UHGV virus genome: UHGV-0199997
Strand: one strand, 5' to 3'
Source of the DNA: a virus
Length of the DNA: 43,953 nt
Part shown: positions 418-40,189 of the stretch, piece by piece
How the letters are laid out: every line of letters begins with the position of its first letter
Numbering within the stretch: the first letter of the stretch is position 1
Notes under the pieces: model-generated
What the model saw: the letters and a program-made list of their open reading frames with translations, nothing else
The model's database searches: none
Told to the model about the DNA's origin: nothing
Translations under genes and position numbers: made by a program

Positions 418-782
418 ACGCGCTGTACAGGTTCGCCACCTACGAGTTCGTTGATAAGCATAAAATCAGAGAGTTTGATTCTATAGCTGACGGACACGAA
501 CAGGCGCTTATCGCGATGGGTGTAATCGATAAGAAAAAACGTGCAGCGCGACGGGGTGGGCCGGAATGCCCGCCCCTTTTTATATCCACCTTTGAGACGT
601 ATTGCGACATTAAGTTTACGCGACACGTGCGCGAGGACGCTGTAGTATTGTTTGCAAGAGAATCCGTTACGTGGCAAGACCTGAAAGCCTATCTCGATGT
701 TACGCAAAAGCAGCTTAGCCTGTTCGAGATAGACATTATCATGGGCTTAGAAGCAATCTTTGAAGGTAGAAATCATGGCTGA
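399..782 (+). CDS. tail assembly chaperone T-extension (putative G-T fusion via -1 frameshift)
   Basis: -1 frame opens at 399 right after a TAA (396-398), is protein-like through 782 and overlaps the tape measure start; heptamer G GAA AAG at 408-414 resembles the lambda G/GT slip site G GGA AAG. Confidence 0.4.
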   Translation, partial: SITGKVDALYRFATYEFVDKHKIREFDSIADGHEQALIAMGVIDKKKRAARRGGPECPPLFISTFETYCDIKFTRHVREDAVVLFARESVTWQDLKAYLDVTQKQLSLFEIDIIMGLEAIFEGRNHG

Positions 783-9005: not shown

Positions 9006-9141
9006 ACTCTTCTGATACCTTCTCCAGTACAAACGCCAGTTGCGCATTAGCGGCATCTCTTTGCTGCCGTAGTCGTAGAACCTCTTCTTCAAGTTCCTTG
9101 ATACGTTTTTGTAATGCCGGAATCGGGGCTATGATGTTCAT
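9004..9141 (-). CDS. small coiled-coil protein (45 aa), not in the ORF track
   Basis: MNIIAPIPALQKRIKELEEEVLRLRQQRDAANAQLAFVLEKVSEE; its ATG overlaps the TGA of the upstream primase-like gene (ATGA), suggesting translational coupling. Confidence 0.35.
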   Translation of the reverse strand: MNIIAPIPALQKRIKELEEEVLRLRQQRDAANAQLAFVLEKVSEE

Positions 9142-9653
9142 CTGGTAAATTTCCTCGCAAGATACGTTATTTCTTCTTCACAAAGTTCATCAAGGTCATT
9201 TGACACAAATCCTCTGGTGAATGTTTTGCTGAACTTTAAGCCCGCTTTATCATTGTCACCGGCGCACACCCATTCATACGGCAAAAGTGACATTTGCTGC
9301 CGTAAGTCCGCTGGTATGTTCGACCCCAATGCGCTAACTGCATTAAACCCGCAATTCATCAAAGCAACAGCTTTAAATATGCTTTCGGTAACAAATACCA
9401 CCCCGCTACTCGGCAAATACTCAAGTCCCCATAAACACGGCCTTGTTGTTCGGGTATAGTACCGCGCGTCTTTATGGTTCTTGCAGTTCTTTTCGGCGTG
9501 TGGTTTGTAGTGCTGGTACCCGCGAAGCCTACCGTCAAATCCCCACAGGTAAAACGTAGCTACTCCAGGGCCTAAGACTACACGTAAACGGTCCGCGTCA
9601 AAACCTCGTGACAGCAGATGTGCCTTAAGTAGTAACTCCTCGCTGCCCATCAT
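9138..9653 (-). CDS. TOPRIM-domain primase-like protein
   Basis: TOPRIM signature: conserved Glu in FVTESIF and DxD in CAGDNDKAG; ATGA overlap with the helicase stop. Confidence 0.6.
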   Translation of the reverse strand: MMGSEELLLKAHLLSRGFDADRLRVVLGPGVATFYLWGFDGRLRGYQHYKPHAEKNCKNHKDARYYTRTTRPCLWGLEYLPSSGVVFVTESIFKAVALMNCGFNAVSALGSNIPADLRQQMSLLPYEWVCAGDNDKAGLKFSKTFTRGFVSNDLDELCEEEITYLARKFTR

Positions 9654-12767: not shown

Positions 12768-12899
12768 TCATTCCAGCACCCACAGATAAATTGCGATGAA
12801 CATGCCCAGTACGGCGACAATCATGCCGTATTGGCCCTCGTGACAGTAGACACCGGCGGCAAATCCCGCCAGTACCGCGATAATCAGTTTACTTAGCAT
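12768..12899 (-). CDS. small hydrophobic membrane peptide (43 aa), not in the ORF track
   Basis: MLSKLIIAVLAGFAAGVYCHEGQYGMIVAVLGMFIAIYLWVLE; the start overlaps the 3' end of the DNA polymerase gene. Confidence 0.3.
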   Translation of the reverse strand: MLSKLIIAVLAGFAAGVYCHEGQYGMIVAVLGMFIAIYLWVLE

Positions 12900-15072
12900 A
12901 GCGCTTCATCTCCGCACCTTCCGCCACAAGAGGGAACCCCTCTGCCCACTCCGGTAATTCGCACATCAACCGCTCAAGCTCTGCAACATTGTATTCCGGT
13001 AAATCTGGCGTCTCGCAGATAATCTCATCGTGAACATGAAGTACAATCGGGTAGCCGTTTGCCTCTACGTTCAGCAGCGCATTAGCCAGCAAATCACGGC
13101 ACAGCGCCTGCGTGCAGTTTTCCACCAGTTTACCGGAGTAGGTGTACTGAAAGCCCCACTGACGGGTTAGCTGATTTTCACCCTGATACTTGATGCGGAC
13201 GTTAGTAGACACTTTTCCATCTTCGTCTGTCTCTTTCGACACGCTTAACCCAACACCCGGATAAGACATAACACGACCCGACGGCAGCGTCATACGCAAC
13301 CACCAACCGGCGACTTTGTTGCCGTTGTTGTCTGTCTCCACGTTACGCGAAAACTTAACTCCCCGCGGCCCTGCGGTGAACTCTTTACCTGGATTGCGAA
13401 TAGCTGCCATAGCCGCATCTTCAATATCTCGCCAGAAAGCTACGGTTTCCGGGTGGGACTCACGCCACATGCGTTTGATAGCGTCACAGGTACGCCACAC
13501 TTTCTTATCAAGAATATATGATGGTCGGTCATCTTTTTCACCTGGCCGCGGAGGCCGCTTGGCTTCCTGAATACGCGCCCACTCATATCCACGCGCGGTA
13601 GCGGCCCAGATGTGGTCGGGGAAAGTACCGTCCATTGTTTTAGCCATATCAACAAGGTCAAGGCCGAGGTTCTTAGCAAACTGAACGAAAGCACCTACAC
13701 CGCCTGCGTAGCCGAGGCCCAATTCGCAGGCTTTACCAATCTGCCGTAAGTCTTTACGTTCTTTCTTAATGTAATCCGGCTCCATGCCAAACATCTTACC
13801 TGCGGTTACGCAGTAAATATCCAGCCCAGCACGGAACGTATCTAACGCGGTTTCTTCCCCCGCCAGCCACGCGAGACCGCGGCCTTCAACGTTAGAGTAA
13901 TCGGCAACGACAAACTTATGCCCGGCTTCCGGGATAATGCAGCTACGAACCGTCGATGCCGTCAGCTTGGCTACATCGAAACGGCGGTGCGCGCGGCCCT
14001 TAAGTAACGCTGAAATGCCTTTATCCAGTTCATCATCATCATGGTAATACCCGCGCGCCAGGTTCTGCGGCTGGAAGCCTTTACCCGCAAACCGTAACGT
14101 ACGCTTTGCCCCACCGTACTGGATGCAACCGCGGCGTCGGTCGTCAGAAGAGCGGCCTAACAGCAGCGGGTTATATTTCGTTGACGCCGTGGACGCGGCC
14201 CCGAGGCGCATTTCGATAATCGTGCGGGCGTCGTCCGGTAAATCATCATCCGCCAGCAGGTCATTCAGCGTCGACTTCTGCGCATTGTGGATGCGGTGCG
14301 CGGGTGCGAGTTCACGCAGAATCGGAAGGAAGTCTTTACCGGTAAGCGAGCCGCCGTATTTGCGCTGTGCTTCTTCCTGTAACTGCGCTTTATGTTTCTC
14401 CACGGCTTCAATCGCGGCTTCCGCCAGCGCGACGTCAACCTTAAACCCTCGGTCATTGATTAACTGGTCCAGTTCCAGTACGCGGTCCTCGAACTCAGAG
14501 TTACCCCACCGCGGTAGCTTATGGAAAACTTCACGCATCGCAGTGATGTCGCTCACGGCGTACTTGATGAATAGCGCCCACTCGTCCGGGTGTGTTTCGG
14601 CGGTGTAACGGCGGATTTTGTAGTTCTTCGGCGTAGGTTTAGAAAAACGCTGAATCAGTGCCTTGCCGCGTTTATCTTTCGCGTTGTCCGCGGATACGCC
14701 CAGCACTTCGCACAGCGCATCGAGAGAACCCGGCAGCGCGTGACGAAACGCCCAAATCATCGTATCAATGGTGTTGCTTACCGGAATATCAAAGCCCCAG
14801 CAGTGCTTCATGATGAGCCTATCGAAAAGTCCACCGTTGTGCCACACCATCTTAATTCGGCTGTTTGGCTTCACCAGACGGCGTAACACGCGGTGCAAAT
14901 CCCCCGGCATGTCGCTGCCGTCCGTGCAATCCCACACCTGCACAGGCTCGTCATCGAAAGCATAGGTACAGATTAACACTTCGGTTGACGGGTGTTCGGC
15001 GTAAGCGTAGGAACCGACTTTCTTTAAATCGGCTTCGGAGAATGTTTCAAAGTCTAAGAACAGGTAACTCAT
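12889..15072 (-). CDS. DNA polymerase, family A (Pol I / T7-like) with 3'-5' exonuclease domain
   Basis: 727 aa; Exo I motif in LFLDFETFS at the N-terminus and a Pol A-type polymerase domain. Confidence 0.9.
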   Translation of the reverse strand: MSYLFLDFETFSEADLKKVGSYAYAEHPSTEVLICTYAFDDEPVQVWDCTDGSDMPGDLHRVLRRLVKPNSRIKMVWHNGGLFDRLIMKHCWGFDIPVSNTIDTMIWAFRHALPGSLDALCEVLGVSADNAKDKRGKALIQRFSKPTPKNYKIRRYTAETHPDEWALFIKYAVSDITAMREVFHKLPRWGNSEFEDRVLELDQLINDRGFKVDVALAEAAIEAVEKHKAQLQEEAQRKYGGSLTGKDFLPILRELAPAHRIHNAQKSTLNDLLADDDLPDDARTIIEMRLGAASTASTKYNPLLLGRSSDDRRRGCIQYGGAKRTLRFAGKGFQPQNLARGYYHDDDELDKGISALLKGRAHRRFDVAKLTASTVRSCIIPEAGHKFVVADYSNVEGRGLAWLAGEETALDTFRAGLDIYCVTAGKMFGMEPDYIKKERKDLRQIGKACELGLGYAGGVGAFVQFAKNLGLDLVDMAKTMDGTFPDHIWAATARGYEWARIQEAKRPPRPGEKDDRPSYILDKKVWRTCDAIKRMWRESHPETVAFWRDIEDAAMAAIRNPGKEFTAGPRGVKFSRNVETDNNGNKVAGWWLRMTLPSGRVMSYPGVGLSVSKETDEDGKVSTNVRIKYQGENQLTRQWGFQYTYSGKLVENCTQALCRDLLANALLNVEANGYPIVLHVHDEIICETPDLPEYNVAELERLMCELPEWAEGFPLVAEGAEMKRYAK

Positions 15073-18375: not shown

Positions 18376-20633
18376 TCCAAATCCTCATCTGTCACCACCA
18401 GCATTTCATTCGGTTCGTATATTGTCTTCGGAATTTTGTTGTCGTTTATACCCCACGGCAGCCGGTACTGCTTAGGTATAGGTCTGTTGTTGCCATCCAG
18501 ACCTGAGACGATAACCCCAGCCTCGTGCATCTCTTCCAGTTTCTTTCTAAGGTCGTTATTGGCGTTAATTGGTACGCCATAACTATCTTCTTTCGCGGCT
18601 TTGACGATAGCCGACATAGAGAACCCTCGCTTATCGTCGCCCTGCTCCTGCAATTTACCCAATGCGTAAATAACCGTAGCCTCTTTGGTGTCCAGTTTCT
18701 CGAACTGGCCTACCTTTTCTTTAACGGCTTCCTTCTGTTCGTCGGTCATACCTTCTACTTTCTTCACGAAGACAGAGAAGGCGTTAAAGTTAACAAAGAC
18801 ATCGATGTGCGGGTTTCCTGCGTCAAAATCGCGGACATCATCACTACTGTACCCTTCCGGAAGACCCATGAAGTTGTGAGTTGGCTCTTTCTTTTTCGGT
18901 GGCTCCGCTATCTGAATCTTCTGTATTACAAATCCTCTGGCTTTCTGCCGTTCTCCGTTTCGGTTCTTTATGTGATACAGGTTTATCCCTAAGTTATTGT
19001 CGTTGTCAGGCTTATGCAGGAACATCCCGTTATCGATGGAGTTGTGAAAGTCACTTCCACCCTTCGGCATCATGCCGTTTTCCGACGGTACTGTTTCGTC
19101 GATGTTTTTAGTCGGGTGCACCATAGCACCTACCGCGGCGTTAAGCGTCGACGCTATTTCGTTAAGTGCCTGCGCCGCTTCTTTCATTGACCTGTTGTCG
19201 TTTTCGTCAAAGCCAGGTATGCAAGTTTGCAGGGTATCAAACGTAACCTTTACAATTTTCTCTTCACCGGCAACACGGCGCATCATTCTCACCACCTGAC
19301 GTCGCCATGCTTCGTCGAGTAAGTTACATCCCTCCGCAACACAATCGATAATGTGCAAGCGGTCCAAGTTATCGCCGAGGGCAATCTGCAAAGATTTTTT
19401 ATGTCGCTCGAACGACCGCACACCTTCACCCGCAAAAATAAACGCATGACCTTCCGCTACCTCAGCCCCGCCGAACGCATATCTTTTTTCGGCAGCAATA
19501 GCGGCGTCAATCGCCATACTAAATGTTGACTTACCGGTATGCGACTTTGCACAAATGTAGAATGATTCGTTAGTCTGCATAAGACCATCTACGACGGAGT
19601 ATGCAGGTTCTTTTTCTAATTCCGGCTCGTCTTCAAGGTCTTCCAGCGTGCAAGTTACAGGTTCCTCGTTCTCTGTGCGGTGCAGTTCTTCAATCTCTTC
19701 ATCAGGTAAATCAGGCAGAGCCGCGCGAATGCTGTTAACGCTGATAGGTTGCTTGTCTACGTTAAGCTCGTCAGGTAGACCACACATACGCAGGGCCAAA
19801 TGCTGCCTACGGTTAAGCTCGGTGCAAGCGCCGTTGTTTGTATGCTGGCAGACAAAGCGCACTTCTTTACCGTCTAGCATGATGCTGGTGGAGCCTTTGC
19901 CTGTGTGCAGATGTTCGTTAGGGCATGGCACTTCGTACCCGCGCCCGGAAGATAAAGCATCAAGCCCAAGCTCGGCTTCGCAGAAATGCGCTATATCTGC
20001 GTTAAGCCCATGCTCATCGGCAGCAAGTGTCTTGGCTTCGCGTTTACGCAACCCCATCTCTTCGGCTTTCTTGATGTACCGCTCGGCACGGATAACACGC
20101 CCCTCTGTAACCGTTATCTTCGACTCTTTATGCGGCAGGTAGATAAGGCGGTTGCCATCTTCTGTGCAGTGGTCACGCAGCGATTCATCTATTTCTAACT
20201 CTGCACAAATAGCCCGTTGCACCATCCACGCATCGTTAGAGTTAAACGGAGTGCGAGCCGGAACCAGAACGCGGAATGCGTAATCCCCGTTTTTACACGC
20301 GTGCTGATGCGATGCCGTTGTGTGCAGAATATTGAAGAACGGCGCGTTCTTGAATTTGCGTGTCAGGTCGCGGTACTGAGTACGGTTGAGATGGTCGAAG
20401 TCGAACTTAACCACACTGTCTTCCAGAATCGCATTCTTACGGCGACCGCCAACAGGAGCAATAGCCTTCTGCTTAATCTTAGCCGCGTCGTATTCTTCCT
20501 TAGTCCACGACGGGTCCACGGACAAACGCTTCGATGTATCGCAGACGTACTCTACAAACTGCTCCAGCGGCATTTCACGTGCTACAGGGTTTTTATCGAA
20601 TGTGTTACGCAGCGTTGCAAAAACAATATTCAT
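18372..20633 (-). CDS. replication protein, primase/helicase-like P-loop NTPase
   Basis: 753 aa; Walker A in AKSHTGKST followed by a RecA-like region; Cys/His-rich segment (CPNEH...CQHTNNGAC) in the N-terminal half. Confidence 0.65.
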   Translation of the reverse strand: MNIVFATLRNTFDKNPVAREMPLEQFVEYVCDTSKRLSVDPSWTKEEYDAAKIKQKAIAPVGGRRKNAILEDSVVKFDFDHLNRTQYRDLTRKFKNAPFFNILHTTASHQHACKNGDYAFRVLVPARTPFNSNDAWMVQRAICAELEIDESLRDHCTEDGNRLIYLPHKESKITVTEGRVIRAERYIKKAEEMGLRKREAKTLAADEHGLNADIAHFCEAELGLDALSSGRGYEVPCPNEHLHTGKGSTSIMLDGKEVRFVCQHTNNGACTELNRRQHLALRMCGLPDELNVDKQPISVNSIRAALPDLPDEEIEELHRTENEEPVTCTLEDLEDEPELEKEPAYSVVDGLMQTNESFYICAKSHTGKSTFSMAIDAAIAAEKRYAFGGAEVAEGHAFIFAGEGVRSFERHKKSLQIALGDNLDRLHIIDCVAEGCNLLDEAWRRQVVRMMRRVAGEEKIVKVTFDTLQTCIPGFDENDNRSMKEAAQALNEIASTLNAAVGAMVHPTKNIDETVPSENGMMPKGGSDFHNSIDNGMFLHKPDNDNNLGINLYHIKNRNGERQKARGFVIQKIQIAEPPKKKEPTHNFMGLPEGYSSDDVRDFDAGNPHIDVFVNFNAFSVFVKKVEGMTDEQKEAVKEKVGQFEKLDTKEATVIYALGKLQEQGDDKRGFSMSAIVKAAKEDSYGVPINANNDLRKKLEEMHEAGVIVSGLDGNNRPIPKQYRLPWGINDNKIPKTIYEPNEMLVVTDEDLE

Positions 20634-20758
20634 TTCTTTTTCTCCGCACGTTCTAAGGCTTCCTGCATACGACGCATTGCGCGGTTCATCTTTACCGGTG
20701 CGAAGAAATCAGCGCCGTGTTTCTGGCGGCGTAGCTGTGGAACTATTAACTTCGTCAT
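20630..20758 (-). CDS. small basic protein (42 aa), not in the ORF track
   Basis: MTKLIVPQLRRQKHGADFFAPVKMNRAMRRMQEALERAEKKK; RBS AAGGA 7 nt before the ATG; its stop overlaps the ATG of the downstream gene (ATGA). Confidence 0.4.
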   Translation of the reverse strand: MTKLIVPQLRRQKHGADFFAPVKMNRAMRRMQEALERAEKKK

Positions 20759-20826
20759 TGTATAATCCTTGTGCTTACTTTGATGATTTGTACTTTAACC
20801 CCGACGTTCTGGCGTTGGGGTTTCTT

Positions 20827-21039
20827 TTATTTATCGCCTGCAAACCACGCGTGCGCAGAATCATAGAAACGACATTTACTTAACATGTCTACCGGCATCT
20901 TAATAATGCGCGTCGGTTCCGACAAATGATTAGGTTTACATATTTCTGCATAGAATCCGCTGTCGGTAATTTCTGACGCAAACTTAAACCAGTATTTAAC
21001 TTTACCGTTCTCAAAGTAACAACCCATACGCCCAATCAT
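20827..21039 (-). CDS. hypothetical protein (70 aa)
   Basis: ORF with ATGA coupling to the upstream HTH gene. Confidence 0.45.
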   Translation of the reverse strand: MIGRMGCYFENGKVKYWFKFASEITDSGFYAEICKPNHLSEPTRIIKMPVDMLSKCRFYDSAHAWFAGDK

Positions 21040-32189: not shown

Positions 32190-33233
32190 ATGAGCTTACT
32201 TACATCGCTAATCAGCCACCAGATATGGCTGCAACGCACCGCATCCGGCGAAGTGAAAGACCTTGCACCGTTTATTCAGGAGATGCGGGATGAAATCAAA
32301 CGGCAGGTGCTGTTATTCGGTGACGACGGGCGAAGCACAGCGCGCCTGAATAAACTGTTACGCGACCTCGAAGAAGCATTGACCGGACTTACGGGTGACT
32401 GGCAGACAAAGCTGACAGAAGACCTTAAGGAACTGGCAGCGTATGAGGCTGAGTGGAACGTAAAGACACTTACCGCCAACGTAAATGCGGAATTTGTTAC
32501 ACCTACCGCCGAACAGGTGTGGGCCGCCGCCGAGTTTCAACCGCTCTCATTAAGCGACAAACCAGTTGATTTCACCAAGCTGATGTCGGGCTGGGGTGAA
32601 ACAGAAGTCGCGCGCCTTGTAACCGGCGTTAAAATGGGTTTCGTACAAGGCCAAACCACACGGCAGATTGTTAAAAGCGTAGTCGGCGCTGGCGGACTGG
32701 CAGACATCTCGGAACGAAACGCAGCTACAGTAATACGTACTGCGCTGTCTCATGTGTCCAACGAAGCCCGTAACGAGACGTACCGCCAGAACGACGACAT
32801 CATTGAGAAATACGAAATAGTCGCCACACTCGACAGCCGTACATCAACAATATGCCGTAGCCTGGACAGGCAGGAATACGAAATCAGCAAAGGTCCGAGA
32901 CCCCCTTTCCATCCTAACTGCAGAACGACCACTGCGCCCGTAATCAGTTCCGAGTTCGATTTCCTGGATAAAGGTGCAAAACGCGCGGCTAAGGGTGCGA
33001 ACGGCGGTACTCAGGTAAGTGCGGACACCACTTACTACGAGTTCCTCAAACAACAACCGGCGTGGTTTCAGGACCAGGCCCTCGGCCCTGTTCGCGGTAA
33101 GATTTTCCGTAACAGCGGTATATCGCCGGAAGAGTTTCGCGTAATATCTGTAGATGGTTTTGGGAATCCGCTCACGCTTAAGCAGATGGCGGAACTCGAT
33201 AAACGTGTCGCTGATTATCTGAAAGGGGAATAA
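32190..33233 (+). CDS. head morphogenesis protein (minor head protein, SPP1 gp7 / Mu F-like)
   Basis: RBS AGGAGGG before ATG 32190; ~350-aa protein after the portal gene. The track start is 32133. Confidence 0.65.
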   Translation: MSLLTSLISHQIWLQRTASGEVKDLAPFIQEMRDEIKRQVLLFGDDGRSTARLNKLLRDLEEALTGLTGDWQTKLTEDLKELAAYEAEWNVKTLTANVNAEFVTPTAEQVWAAAEFQPLSLSDKPVDFTKLMSGWGETEVARLVTGVKMGFVQGQTTRQIVKSVVGAGGLADISERNAATVIRTALSHVSNEARNETYRQNDDIIEKYEIVATLDSRTSTICRSLDRQEYEISKGPRPPFHPNCRTTTAPVISSEFDFLDKGAKRAAKGANGGTQVSADTTYYEFLKQQPAWFQDQALGPVRGKIFRNSGISPEEFRVISVDGFGNPLTLKQMAELDKRVADYLKGE

Positions 33234-33694
33234 TGATGGGCTTTTTCAAAGTAACTGATGTACCGTCGCGTCGCGTAGTCCAGTACGCCCGCGTGTCTGG
33301 CTCCGGCGAGAACGTAGTATTTATTGAGGATGAAAGTGTACTAGGTACACCAGTAGACGATATGCCGTTTGCGGATAAGACAGGCATCGCACTTCCTGCG
33401 GCAGGTATGCTTTATGAGATTCCGTATCTGGCTGATGCGGGTGATGTGTATTTCTCCGAGCAACCGAAAGATGCGGAACTGGTAGACGGCAGCGCAACCC
33501 TCACTGTCGAAGTTAAAGCAGGTGAAGCGCCGTATACACTGACCTGGTACAAAGACGGTAAGGAAGTGGTAAACGCCCCGGAAGAGGCCTTGTCTCTGAC
33601 GGTCAATGCAGTTGGTGAATACTTCGTTAAGGTTACTGATGCCGATGGTGTAGATGCGGTAAGTAAAGCGGCGAAGGTTACTAAGCCAGAATGA
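33233..33694 (+). CDS. Ig-like domain protein (putative virion decoration)
   Basis: C-terminal Ig-like segment TLTVEVKAGEAPYTLTWYKDGKEV...GEYFVKVTDADG. Confidence 0.5.
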   Translation: MMGFFKVTDVPSRRVVQYARVSGSGENVVFIEDESVLGTPVDDMPFADKTGIALPAAGMLYEIPYLADAGDVYFSEQPKDAELVDGSATLTVEVKAGEAPYTLTWYKDGKEVVNAPEEALSLTVNAVGEYFVKVTDADGVDAVSKAAKVTKPE

Positions 33695-33697
33695 TAA

Positions 33698-33727
33698 AAG
33701 GCCCCTTATGGGGCCTTAATTTTATTT
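33698..33727. terminator. bidirectional rho-independent terminator
   Basis: AAGGCCCC-TTAT-GGGGCCTT followed by AATTTTATTT; shared by the convergent genes 33233-33694 (+) and 33722-34243 (-). Confidence 0.65.
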
Positions 33728-34243
33728 AAATCGCGCTGGCATTAGCACCATAAATGCAGTGTTTGAAAATGATATTTTGCATCCTCTGATTTGGTCCTGG
33801 AAATCGAAACGAGCGATTTCATTTTTGTATGCCTTAGAAATCTTGTGCGCGTCCGCCAAGTAGCGCAGGGTGAACCCTATGCTGTCAACCGCCCCCGGCG
33901 TGATGTGCGCCACACGTCTCCAGTCAGGAAACCTTCCGTCTACAACATCTACCGGAAGTGTACATATAAGCGCACGACTATCGTCATAGAAAGAAACGCT
34001 GCTGTTGTCGTGGTCTACTTCCGCGTAGTTAAATTTAGAAGGCTCTCTCCCTTTGATGTCTATGAGAACCGCATTCTCAACGTTTGTCTTAACGTTGTCG
34101 CAGAACAATCTATGACCGTCCGTAGACACTATCAATCCCTCCGGGTCTATGTAAAAAGCATTCAAATAATAGCGCACATCATTTTTAGCTCTGCATATTT
34201 TTGCCCCTACATACGCAGGGAAAGTAATTACTGTAGTAGCCAT
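33722..34243 (-). CDS. DnaN (beta sliding clamp)-like mini-protein
   Basis: 173 aa; VSTDGHRLF matches the conserved DnaN TDGHRL motif and the C-terminus FMVLMPARF matches the DnaN YVVMPMRL tail; own promoter element upstream; RBS GAGGAGGAG. Confidence 0.55.
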   Translation of the reverse strand: MATTVITFPAYVGAKICRAKNDVRYYLNAFYIDPEGLIVSTDGHRLFCDNVKTNVENAVLIDIKGREPSKFNYAEVDHDNSSVSFYDDSRALICTLPVDVVDGRFPDWRRVAHITPGAVDSIGFTLRYLADAHKISKAYKNEIARFDFQDQIRGCKISFSNTAFMVLMPARFK

Positions 34244-34264
34244 TTTAACTCCTCCTCGTTTCGA

Positions 34265-34300
34265 TAACTGAATAGTACCCTATTATGTTGGGGTGTGCAA
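34265..34300 (-). promoter_or_regulatory. conserved promoter element (TTGCAC-N17-TACTATTCAGTTA), minus orientation
   Basis: Member of the element family; immediately upstream of the DnaN-like gene. Confidence 0.5.
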
Positions 34301-34366
34301 ACTATTTATTAGCCTATTCCAGTTATTCCGCTCAATTGTAAATGTTGGAATAAACTATTCGAATAG

Positions 34367-34509
34367 TTGACTTTTCACTAAAAATATGCTAAGCTCCACC
34401 TGAGCTTGTGAAGTATGAACAAGCGACCGCGGCGCGGGCAGGTAACGGAGCGGGACGTAAGTCCTGAGTGTAGTTACGCTGACGCGTTCGGAAGGGCCAT
34501 ACTCTATTG
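34367..34509 (+). promoter_or_regulatory. promoter (TTGACT-N17-TAAGCT) plus conserved leader element, copy 2
   Basis: -35 at 34367-34372 and -10 at 34390-34395; conserved blocks at 34399-34432 and 34487-34509 are identical or near-identical to copy 1. Confidence 0.5.
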
Positions 34510-34575
34510 CTTGTGTAAAAAGTAACTGGTTTACTGAGATTACGCCGTTTCTATGTTTAAATGATAAGGACTAGC

Positions 34576-34602
34576 GCCCCGCTTTATGGCGGGGCTTTAC
34601 TT
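34576..34602 (+). terminator. hairpin terminator between the copy 2 leader and the spanin gene
   Basis: GCCCCGC-TTTATG-GCGGGGC followed by TTTACTT, about 20 nt upstream of the spanin RBS. Confidence 0.45.
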
Positions 34603-34619
34603 ATCGAGAAAGGAGAAAC

Positions 34620-35006
34620 ATGAATCTTAAAGCAACTGTCGTAGCGGGAGCATGTTTCATCATCCTGGCTTACGCACACGGCATCCACCAGTATCGCAGC
34701 GGCTGGCACGAAGGCCGGGCGAATCTCGTTTCGCAGCAACAGCAGAAAGCACAAGCTGAGTTAGCGAAGAAAACACAACGGCAGCAGCAGGATGAATCAA
34801 AGGCCGCAGCCGCTGACAACGAAGGCAAGACGAAATCAGAGGTGATTACCCGTGAAGTCGTTAAGTACATTAAAACGCCTGGCCGCAGCGTGTGCACTTT
34901 TGACCCTGAGCGCGTGCAGCTCAAGTCCCGCGCCGTCGCAAACGCAAATTCCATCCCCGGATATGACGATGATGCAGCCTCCGTGCAAACTGGCGCCGCC
35001 AAGTAG
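34620..35006 (+). CDS. i-spanin (Rz-like)
   Basis: N-terminal TM helix followed by a Q/A/K-rich coiled-coil periplasmic domain; contains an embedded +1-frame lipoprotein gene. Confidence 0.7.
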   Translation: MNLKATVVAGACFIILAYAHGIHQYRSGWHEGRANLVSQQQQKAQAELAKKTQRQQQDESKAAAADNEGKTKSEVITREVVKYIKTPGRSVCTFDPERVQLKSRAVANANSIPGYDDDAASVQTGAAK

Positions 35007-35115
35007 CGACGCTGACGAGGATTTGGCTATCGACGTTCAGAACGCCGAATGTGTACGGCAACTGAGACTGAAAGTGTTCATGTTGCAGGATTACGTGAGG
35101 AATATTCTGGAATAG
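34852..35115 (+). CDS. o-spanin (Rz1-like lipoprotein)
   Basis: Signal peptide with lipobox LSAC, Pro-rich mature region; overlaps and extends past the i-spanin gene. Confidence 0.7.
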   Translation: MKSLSTLKRLAAACALLTLSACSSSPAPSQTQIPSPDMTMMQPPCKLAPPSSDADEDLAIDVQNAECVRQLRLKVFMLQDYVRNILE

Positions 35116-39776: not shown

Positions 39777-40189
39777 TGGGCTACTTTGAGGACTTAACCA
39801 AAGCGTTCGATGTGCCACTGGTAGCCTTCGGAACCACCAACGGCATCAAGGTCGCGCTTGAAAATATCGACGCGCCAACGTCAACCAATACCCCGTATCT
39901 GGCAAGTTACATGTTGCTGGCGGATACGGAACAGGCGGATTTGTTCTTCACGGAACAACGCGCCGGTGTTTATCAGGTAGACATTAACTACGCATCGGTG
40001 AAAGGTAGCGCGCCAATCAATAAAATGGCAGACTTACTTAACACGGCGTTTAAAGCAGGTAAGTCATTTTCGCGTAACGACATCTGCGCCGAGGTTCAAT
40101 CGGTTAGCCTGGGGCCGCTAATTGTAGAAAACGGATGGGCCAAACGACCATTGTCAATTAACTTTATTGCATTCACCAAGAGGCTGTGA
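39773..40189 (+). CDS. putative tail terminator / tail completion protein
   Basis: 138-aa ORF between the gp10-like and major tail genes; synteny. Confidence 0.45.
   Translation: MMGYFEDLTKAFDVPLVAFGTTNGIKVALENIDAPTSTNTPYLASYMLLADTEQADLFFTEQRAGVYQVDINYASVKGSAPINKMADLLNTAFKAGKSFSRNDICAEVQSVSLGPLIVENGWAKRPLSINFIAFTKRL

Follow-up and report, generated by a model that had tools for sequence, protein, structure and literature searches.

The 173-aa product of a minus-strand gene in the head module of a Kagunavirus genome is a true truncated homologue of the bacterial beta clamp DnaN. Judging from the alignment with the E. coli clamp, this mini clamp has kept the cleft in which the partners of the clamp dock, and the parts that form the ring are gone. 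The protein is very probably a clamp derivative that does not act as a clamp.

The window, i.e. the whole stretch of 43,953 nucleotides that was analyzed, represents an E. coli siphophage of the genus Kagunavirus (Guernseyvirinae), the nearest relatives of which in the phage collection are ~92-93% identical. The initial annotation had placed a 173-aa gene between an Ig-like head gene and the lysis/late region, with a promoter of its own and a bidirectional terminator shared with its neighbour, and had regarded the phage polymerase as a family A enzyme. This is indeed the organization that was found, with the mini-clamp gene lying on the minus strand amid plus-strand head genes:

33722-34243, minus strand: mini-clamp coding sequence, 173 aa, ATG start
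33233-33694, plus strand: Ig/Hoc-like head decoration gene, convergent with the mini-clamp gene
34620-35115, plus strand: i- and o-spanin genes on the other flank of the mini-clamp gene, followed by the scaffold and major capsid genes
33718-34311: accessory cassette (promoter, RBS and gene), an indel with respect to Kagunavirus K1ind2 in a pairwise alignment
34272-34300, minus strand: putative sigma-70-like promoter, TTGCAC-17 nt-TACTAT, a weak match to the consensus (7/12)
34251-34257, minus strand: Shine-Dalgarno sequence GAGGAGG, 7 nt 5' of the ATG, read from the sequence
33698-33717, both strands: bidirectional intrinsic terminator hairpin AAGGCCCCTTATGGGGCCTT, which scores as terminator-like on either strand
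12889-15072, minus strand: phage DNA polymerase, family A (PF00476 match)

Homology to DnaN and the parts kept and lost

The likeness to DnaN had initially been read from two motifs, TDGHRL and a C-terminal MPxRF. These motifs constitute residues 41-46 and 168-172 (MPARF) of a product that is less than half as long as a bacterial clamp (173 aa versus 366 aa for E. coli DnaN), and the likeness is not coincidental. A phmmer search against the beta clamps of the PDB returned E. coli beta (E = 4e-7) in two segments, in which aa 16-117 match DnaN 144-253 (domain II) and aa 116-171 match DnaN 311-365, the last beta-alpha-beta-beta-beta motif of domain III. A family profile based on 63 members scored 109 bits on E. 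coli DnaN. Moreover, the AF2 model of the 173-aa protein (pLDDT 95.8, pTM 0.91) shows the secondary structure of 1.5 domains, and a Foldseek comparison with the PDB yielded beta clamps only (E = 5e-8). The Foldseek alignments extend over ~256 columns for a query of 173 aa, which implies an internal deletion. In the predicted structure, the parts that correspond to domain II and to the C-terminal motif of domain III can be superposed on DnaN at 2.2-2.7 A and keep the native inter-domain geometry. The domain databases gave sub-threshold DnaN matches only, namely the central domain PF02767 in Pfam (17.6 bits versus a cut-off of 27) and TIGR00663 in NCBIfam (18.1 bits versus a cut-off of 137.65); the PF02767 cut-off is passed by many of the longer family members. 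When domain fusions were considered as a hint to function, these longer members showed the DnaN central domain only.

The residues that make up the dimer interface and the pocket for the clamp-binding motif (CBM) of partner proteins were taken from a 2024 review (PMC11139829), and those of the pocket also from PMC3716654. In E. coli, subsite I of the pocket consists of R152, L155, T172, G174, H175, R176, L177, P242, R246, V247, V360 and M362, and subsite II of H175, N320, Y323, V344, M362, P363, M364 and R365 (PMC11139829). The mini clamp is identical to E. coli at 15 of the 18 pocket positions, compared to 38 of the 136 other aligned positions (28%; Fisher p = 8.5e-6). The identical residues include TDGHRL, P242, R246, V247, Y323 and MPxR, whereas the substitutions are N320T, V344I and M364A. 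Three stretches of the gene are of particular concern:

34106-34123, minus strand: codons T41-D42-G43-H44-R45-L46, equivalent to E. coli T172-L177, subsite I
33911-33943, minus strand: codons V101-DGRFPDWRR-V111, equivalent to E. coli V237-V247, holding P242, R246 and V247
33728-33742, minus strand: codons M168-P169-A170-R171-F172, equivalent to E. coli M362-P363-M364-R365-L366, subsites I and II

The same residues stand out within the family. Among 63 members, the T, D, G and R of TDGHRL are invariant and the H is found in 62; P106 is likewise invariant, with R110 present in 62 members and V111 in 56; and at the C-terminus the M is kept in 58 and the P and the R in 61 members each. In total 24 family columns have one residue in at least 85% of the sequences. 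Pocket positions account for 13 of the 24 and nearly all others are direct neighbours of the pocket, K134 and W108 being the conserved columns that lie off it. Between the window and phage Ivi the dN/dS of the mini clamp is 0.13 (0.105 for the neighbouring decoration gene), a value that indicates purifying selection, and the sole pocket position that differs is the equivalent of V344, a residue that is not conserved among clamps (PMC11139829). On this pattern the pocket would be expected to bind CBM peptides. Nevertheless, the pocket residues are among the most conserved ones in DnaN generally, so that part of the conservation could reflect constraints of the fold.

Two segments of DnaN, domain I (residues 1-122) and residues 254-310, have no counterpart in the mini clamp according to the alignment. 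The residues listed for the head-to-tail dimer interface of E. coli (I78, F106, R103, I272, L273, E298 and E304; PMC11139829) all fall within these missing segments. Thus, the loss of domain I together with the first half of domain III has removed the dimer interface on both of its sides, and we infer that the mini clamp forms no ring. In Kagunavirus, other Guernseyvirinae and Dhillonvirus, domain II is also without its second helix, which in DnaN lines the channel, and the AF2 model has a loop (residues 64-72) where this helix is expected. The long-form member P0051 (191 aa; pLDDT 90.7) has the same fold and keeps the helix (H67-76). The long-form members P0066, P0070 and P0105 carry 20-60 residues beyond the MPxR end, in Ala/Pro-rich tails with a short motif such as LPAW(A/V); the window protein is without such a tail. 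With a pI of 7.7 and a net charge of +1 the mini clamp is near neutral, and its charge therefore gives no hint of DNA binding.

The cassette and its distribution

The genome of K1ind2 aligns with the window on either side of the cassette and lacks exactly positions 33718-34311. In line with this, K1ind2 gave no blastn match to window 33693-34240, and neither tblastn nor the family HMM detected a homologue anywhere in its genome. At the same time the genes for polymerase, SSB, nuclease and helicase-primase are common to K1ind2 and the window. The clean indel, taken together with the shared replication genes, implies that the gene is dispensable for Kagunavirus replication. The term 'moron', as used in the initial annotation, is therefore accurate: the cassette is an opposite-strand unit of promoter, gene and terminator that some Kagunavirus genomes carry and others cleanly lack. 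The cassette allele was found in 23 phage records, versus 470 records that have the adjacent scaffold and capsid segment, of which ~99 are Escherichia, Shigella or Kagunavirus.

The putative promoter (34300-34272) was not picked up by a consensus promoter scan. It is identical in phage Ivi, however, and at the equivalent position before the homologues there is TTGACA-17-TATTGT in Salmonella phage SE1 and TTGCAA-18-TATATT in TheodorHerzl, both sigma-70-like and stronger. The element lies inside the segment that is absent from K1ind2. The terminator hairpin is common to the mini-clamp gene and the convergent decoration gene, and K1ind2 has a different hairpin at this position.

The non-coding stretch of 308 bp that separates the cassette from the i-spanin gene (34312-34619, plus strand) was found to be nearly identical to that of K1ind2, with a handful of differences, whereas the neighbouring coding DNA is ~92-94% identical. 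On the plus strand it contains a TTGACT-17-TAAGCT element (34368-34396), a GC-rich segment and, directly before the spanin RBS, a strong terminator-like hairpin (34576-34595). The stem of one hairpin in the stretch reads GGGAC/GUCCU in the window and CGGAC/GUCCG in K1ind2, a change that looks compensatory. The stretch may encode a small RNA or act as a regulatory leader; it has no Rfam match, contains no tRNA and its fold z-score is only -1.35.

Two other variable parts of the genome were compared with the occurrence of the cassette. Window 18450-21038, which comprises most of the helicase-primase gene and the genes upstream of it, has no blastn match in K1ind2 and matches 43 further records at 92-94%, with a query coverage that is complete for some of them and partial for the rest; this pattern points to allele replacement and mosaicism in the replication module of the genus. 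Co-variation of the cassette with this primase-helicase allele was rejected, as the overlap is partial and many records with the allele are without the cassette. A second accessory gene, absent from K1ind2 as well, is formed by a Toprim-like ORF of 171 aa (9138-9653, minus strand) beside the SNF2 helicase gene; the ORF is found in 65 phage records, mostly of Salmonella Jersey-type phages. Co-occurrence was rejected here too: no phage was shared between the 60 listed of these 65 records and the 23 records with the cassette. The window thus joins modules that were not seen together in the collection, at least among the 60 listed records.

The family extends far beyond the genus. An HMM search of 1.84 billion representatives yielded at least 425 clusters (50% identity) at E <= 1e-30, and the proteins of the best 150 clusters are all 169-302 aa long, each covering the whole profile in one stretch. 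By tblastn, homologues were found in 242 records of cultured phages. The carriers include Kagunavirus and other Guernseyvirinae, Dhillonvirus (SO-1, TheodorHerzl/Bas14), the Burkholderia myophage Bcep781, Drexlerviridae-type phages of Klebsiella and Salmonella, and Vibrio phages. In Dhillonvirus, SE1 and Bcep781 the gene is located antisense in the head module, between head-morphogenesis and scaffold/protease genes. In Webervirus and metagenomic relatives it is located in small, early-looking gene clusters or beside replication genes. There were tblastn matches in 121 plasmid records as well, and the mini form was sought there in one case. In the large conjugative enterobacterial plasmid NZ_AP018396.1 (8482-11962) the match turned out to be a full-length DnaN paralogue of 425 aa, directly upstream of a DinG-like helicase gene and near dam and rdgC, and not a mini clamp.

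Possible functions of the mini clamp

The CBM cleft is the one feature that selection keeps and the features needed for encircling DNA are gone, which led us to propose a soluble competitor for CBM-bearing proteins. More specifically, the mini clamp may quite possibly be a monomer-sized, ring-less derivative of the beta clamp, a soluble CBM-pocket module that competes for, or hijacks, the clients of the host clamp; we favour this reading tentatively. Put a shade more cautiously, it is conceivable that phages of many lineages carry such a 'clamp-pocket decoy', which titrates or hijacks the host clamp interactome, i.e. the clamp loader, polymerases, Hda, mismatch repair and RecBCD. In a rarer variant of the decoy reading, the half-domains would pair into a new ring of four subunits.

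The steps of the proposed mechanism would be as follows. Host RNA polymerase would transcribe the optional antisense cassette from its own promoter. The product, an arc of ~1.5 clamp domains, would keep the hydrophobic cleft between domains II and III in which all partners of the clamp dock their CBM (QLxLF-type). Staying off the DNA, it would vie in solution with the host beta2 ring for CBM-bearing proteins of the host, among which the candidates are the clamp-loader subunit delta, Pol III alpha and epsilon, Hda, Pol II/IV/V, MutS/MutL and RecB. As a result, replication, repair or nuclease functions of the host would be diverted or disabled in favour of the phage. Two observations in the literature make a competitor of this kind plausible: monomeric beta binds the clamp-loader subunit delta ~50-fold tighter than the dimer does (PMC11139829), and RecB requires a CBM for its full DNA-degrading activity. 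The presence of distant members in early clusters of small genes was counted in favour of the competitor as well. A PADLOC search gave no match of the mini clamp to a defence system.

The initial annotation had offered three functions, viz. a mimic or poison of the host clamp, a decoy for clamp-binding defence proteins and a processivity factor. A mimic or decoy for clamp-binding proteins fits best, since conservation is strongest at the CBM pocket. A poison that co-assembles with the host clamp is unlikely in view of the missing interface residues I78, F106, R103, I272, L273, E298 and E304. A processivity factor is discussed below.

Klebsiella phage 6991 (Webervirus) has a homologue of the mini clamp and lacks a DNA polymerase; its replication set consists of a Prim-Pol/PriCT primase-helicase, a helicase, an AAA_24 protein and a DUF669 protein. 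Webervirus depends on host Pol III and nevertheless carries the gene, which argues against a protein that would titrate Pol III alpha or the clamp loader indiscriminately. In phages of this type a recruiting role is as plausible as an inhibitory one.

Such a recruiting role could be generalized into an adapter, in which the pocket captures a CBM-bearing host enzyme (the Pol III core or holoenzyme, ligase or Pol I) and a second, lineage-specific surface tethers the captured enzyme to the phage replisome or to the DNA, so that the host enzyme is helped into use and not inhibited. We regard this as a credible but rather unlikely explanation. The conservation of the pocket suits it equally, and so does the gene in the polymerase-less Webervirus, which must use the host polymerase. 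Moreover, a fused primase-helicase is encoded by every carrier examined (the window, Dhillonvirus, Webervirus, Bcep781 and the metagenomic L010 and L012). On the other hand, a second conserved surface is not evident, as the conserved columns cluster at the pocket, with K134 and W108 as the exceptions. Nor is there co-variation between the gene and the allele of the primase-helicase, and the gene is dispensable in Kagunavirus, which has a polymerase of its own.

Finally, a conserved CBM was not found in any phage protein. The window does contain three exact CBM strings: QLSLF (711-725, plus strand) in the frameshift extension of the tail-assembly chaperone (PF23812), QADLF (39932-39946, plus strand) in the tail terminator, and QMSLL (9282-9296) in the Toprim-like ORF. 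The last is the same string as the clamp-binding motif of E. coli MutS, probably by chance, and QADLF is shared with SE1 inside a fully conserved stretch. As candidate phage-encoded partners these proteins were rejected: the strings are not conserved in the orthologues of other carriers and occur in different, unrelated proteins in each genome, and they were therefore judged to be chance occurrences or buried sequence.

A processivity factor is improbable in our view, either as a non-encircling monomer like herpesvirus UL42 or as a novel oligomeric ring, for example of four 1.5-domain subunits that yield six domains by half-domain pairing. The modelled clamp fold with its native inter-domain geometry would suit such a role, and the pseudo-two-fold symmetry of clamp domains suggests that the exposed half-domain could pair with that of a second copy. 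In addition, most carriers encode a family A polymerase that has no known processivity partner, and many GenBank records name the protein a sliding clamp. These points are outweighed, however, by the dispensability of the gene, which is absent from K1ind2 and from most Kagunavirus genomes with the same polymerase, by its presence in a polymerase-less phage, by a phage polymerase in which no CBM was found, and by the loss of the channel-lining second helix of domain II in the lineage of the window. The near-neutral charge of the protein speaks against a processivity factor as well, and in the genomes examined the gene never adjoins the polymerase gene.

The notion of a functionless, decaying dnaN remnant or of a 'RusA-like Holliday junction resolvase', for which the older annotation 'fragment' and the RusA label of phrog_3007 could be cited, is effectively refuted by the conservation and fold data, considering that the same architecture recurs in at least 425 diverged clusters, that the dN/dS is 0.13 and the fold is predicted with high confidence, that the gene has its own RBS, putative promoter and terminator, and that Pfam and NCBIfam gave DnaN models without any RusA match while the structural neighbours are all clamps.

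Annotation, meaning and likeness to known systems

As an annotation the mini clamp is already known. GenBank records label it 'DNA Pol III b subunit fragment' (Bcep781), 'beta clamp domain-containing protein' (Ivi), 'putative DNA polymerase III beta subunit; possible moron gene product' (SO-1), 'DNA polymerase III sliding clamp' or 'RusA-like resolvase', and one genome paper treats the protein as a normal processivity clamp (PMC9825357). A full-text literature search yielded only genome announcements in which the term 'sliding clamp' is repeated; a study of function or structure was not among the results. We found no prior statement of the exact anatomy, with the pocket kept and the ring interfaces deleted, of the size and uniformity of the family, of the clean indel that proves the accessory status, or of the gene in a polymerase-less phage.

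The RusA label is common in annotation that derives from PHROG (phrog_3007), with examples in the RefSeq records NC_004333.2 gp15 and NC_013600.1 gp07, and Bcep781 has a separate, real RusA (gp22). Since the family is a DnaN fragment by both sequence and structure, the 'RusA-like Holliday junction resolvase' of phrog_3007 appears to be a propagated misannotation. A correction would concern hundreds of phage records that say 'DNA polymerase III sliding clamp' or 'RusA-like resolvase', neither of which fits.

Replication and repair in bacteria have the beta clamp as their central hub, and the single pocket shared by all of its partners makes it a target for antibiotics. If the proposed competitor is real, this would be the first case of a virus that mimics the hub itself instead of attacking it, and a pocket-only protein would be a new phage tool for host takeover or counter-defence. 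The mini clamp would then also be a compact natural reagent to trap clamp clients in vivo, and it would show how small the clamp fold can become as a stable unit with the pocket retained. The natural, isogenic-like pairs with and without the cassette (the window phage versus K1ind2-type Kagunaviruses) make the question directly testable.

Among known systems, the mini clamp is homologous in sequence and fold to DnaN (E. coli, PDB 2POL/1MMI; PF00712, PF02767, PF02768), which has three clamp-fold domains in ~366 aa. In contrast to DnaN, the mini clamp lacks domain I, residues 254-310, the dimer interface and with these the three-domain half-ring, it has one channel helix fewer, and it is encoded by an optional, monocistronic phage gene. 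The herpesvirus proteins UL42, UL44 and PF-8 comprise two full domains, bind DNA through a basic face and are partners that the viral polymerase cannot do without, whereas the mini clamp is neutral, dispensable and unlinked to the polymerase.

Phages are known to use clamps outside replication as well. The examples of Mu MuC with the host beta (PMC12867686) and of T4 gp45 in late transcription show that CBMs can be carried by phage regulators, which in this way make use of the pocket. The T4 gp45 and Mu MuC systems use complete, DNA-loaded rings, however, and a conserved CBM-bearing phage partner was not found here. Small phage proteins that act on the clamp or its loader are known as well: Twort gp168 and G1 gp240 bind beta (PDB 7EVP) and N4 gp8 binds the clamp-loader subunit delta. 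These are unrelated to the mini clamp, which would copy the docking site of the clamp and act on its clients and not on the clamp. The nearest analogue of the proposed function is the engineered monomeric beta (I272A/L273A), in which the pocket is kept and the ring cannot close, as would be the case in the mini clamp. Nevertheless, monomeric beta is a laboratory mutant that has all three domains, whereas the mini clamp is also without the domain III loop that contacts delta.
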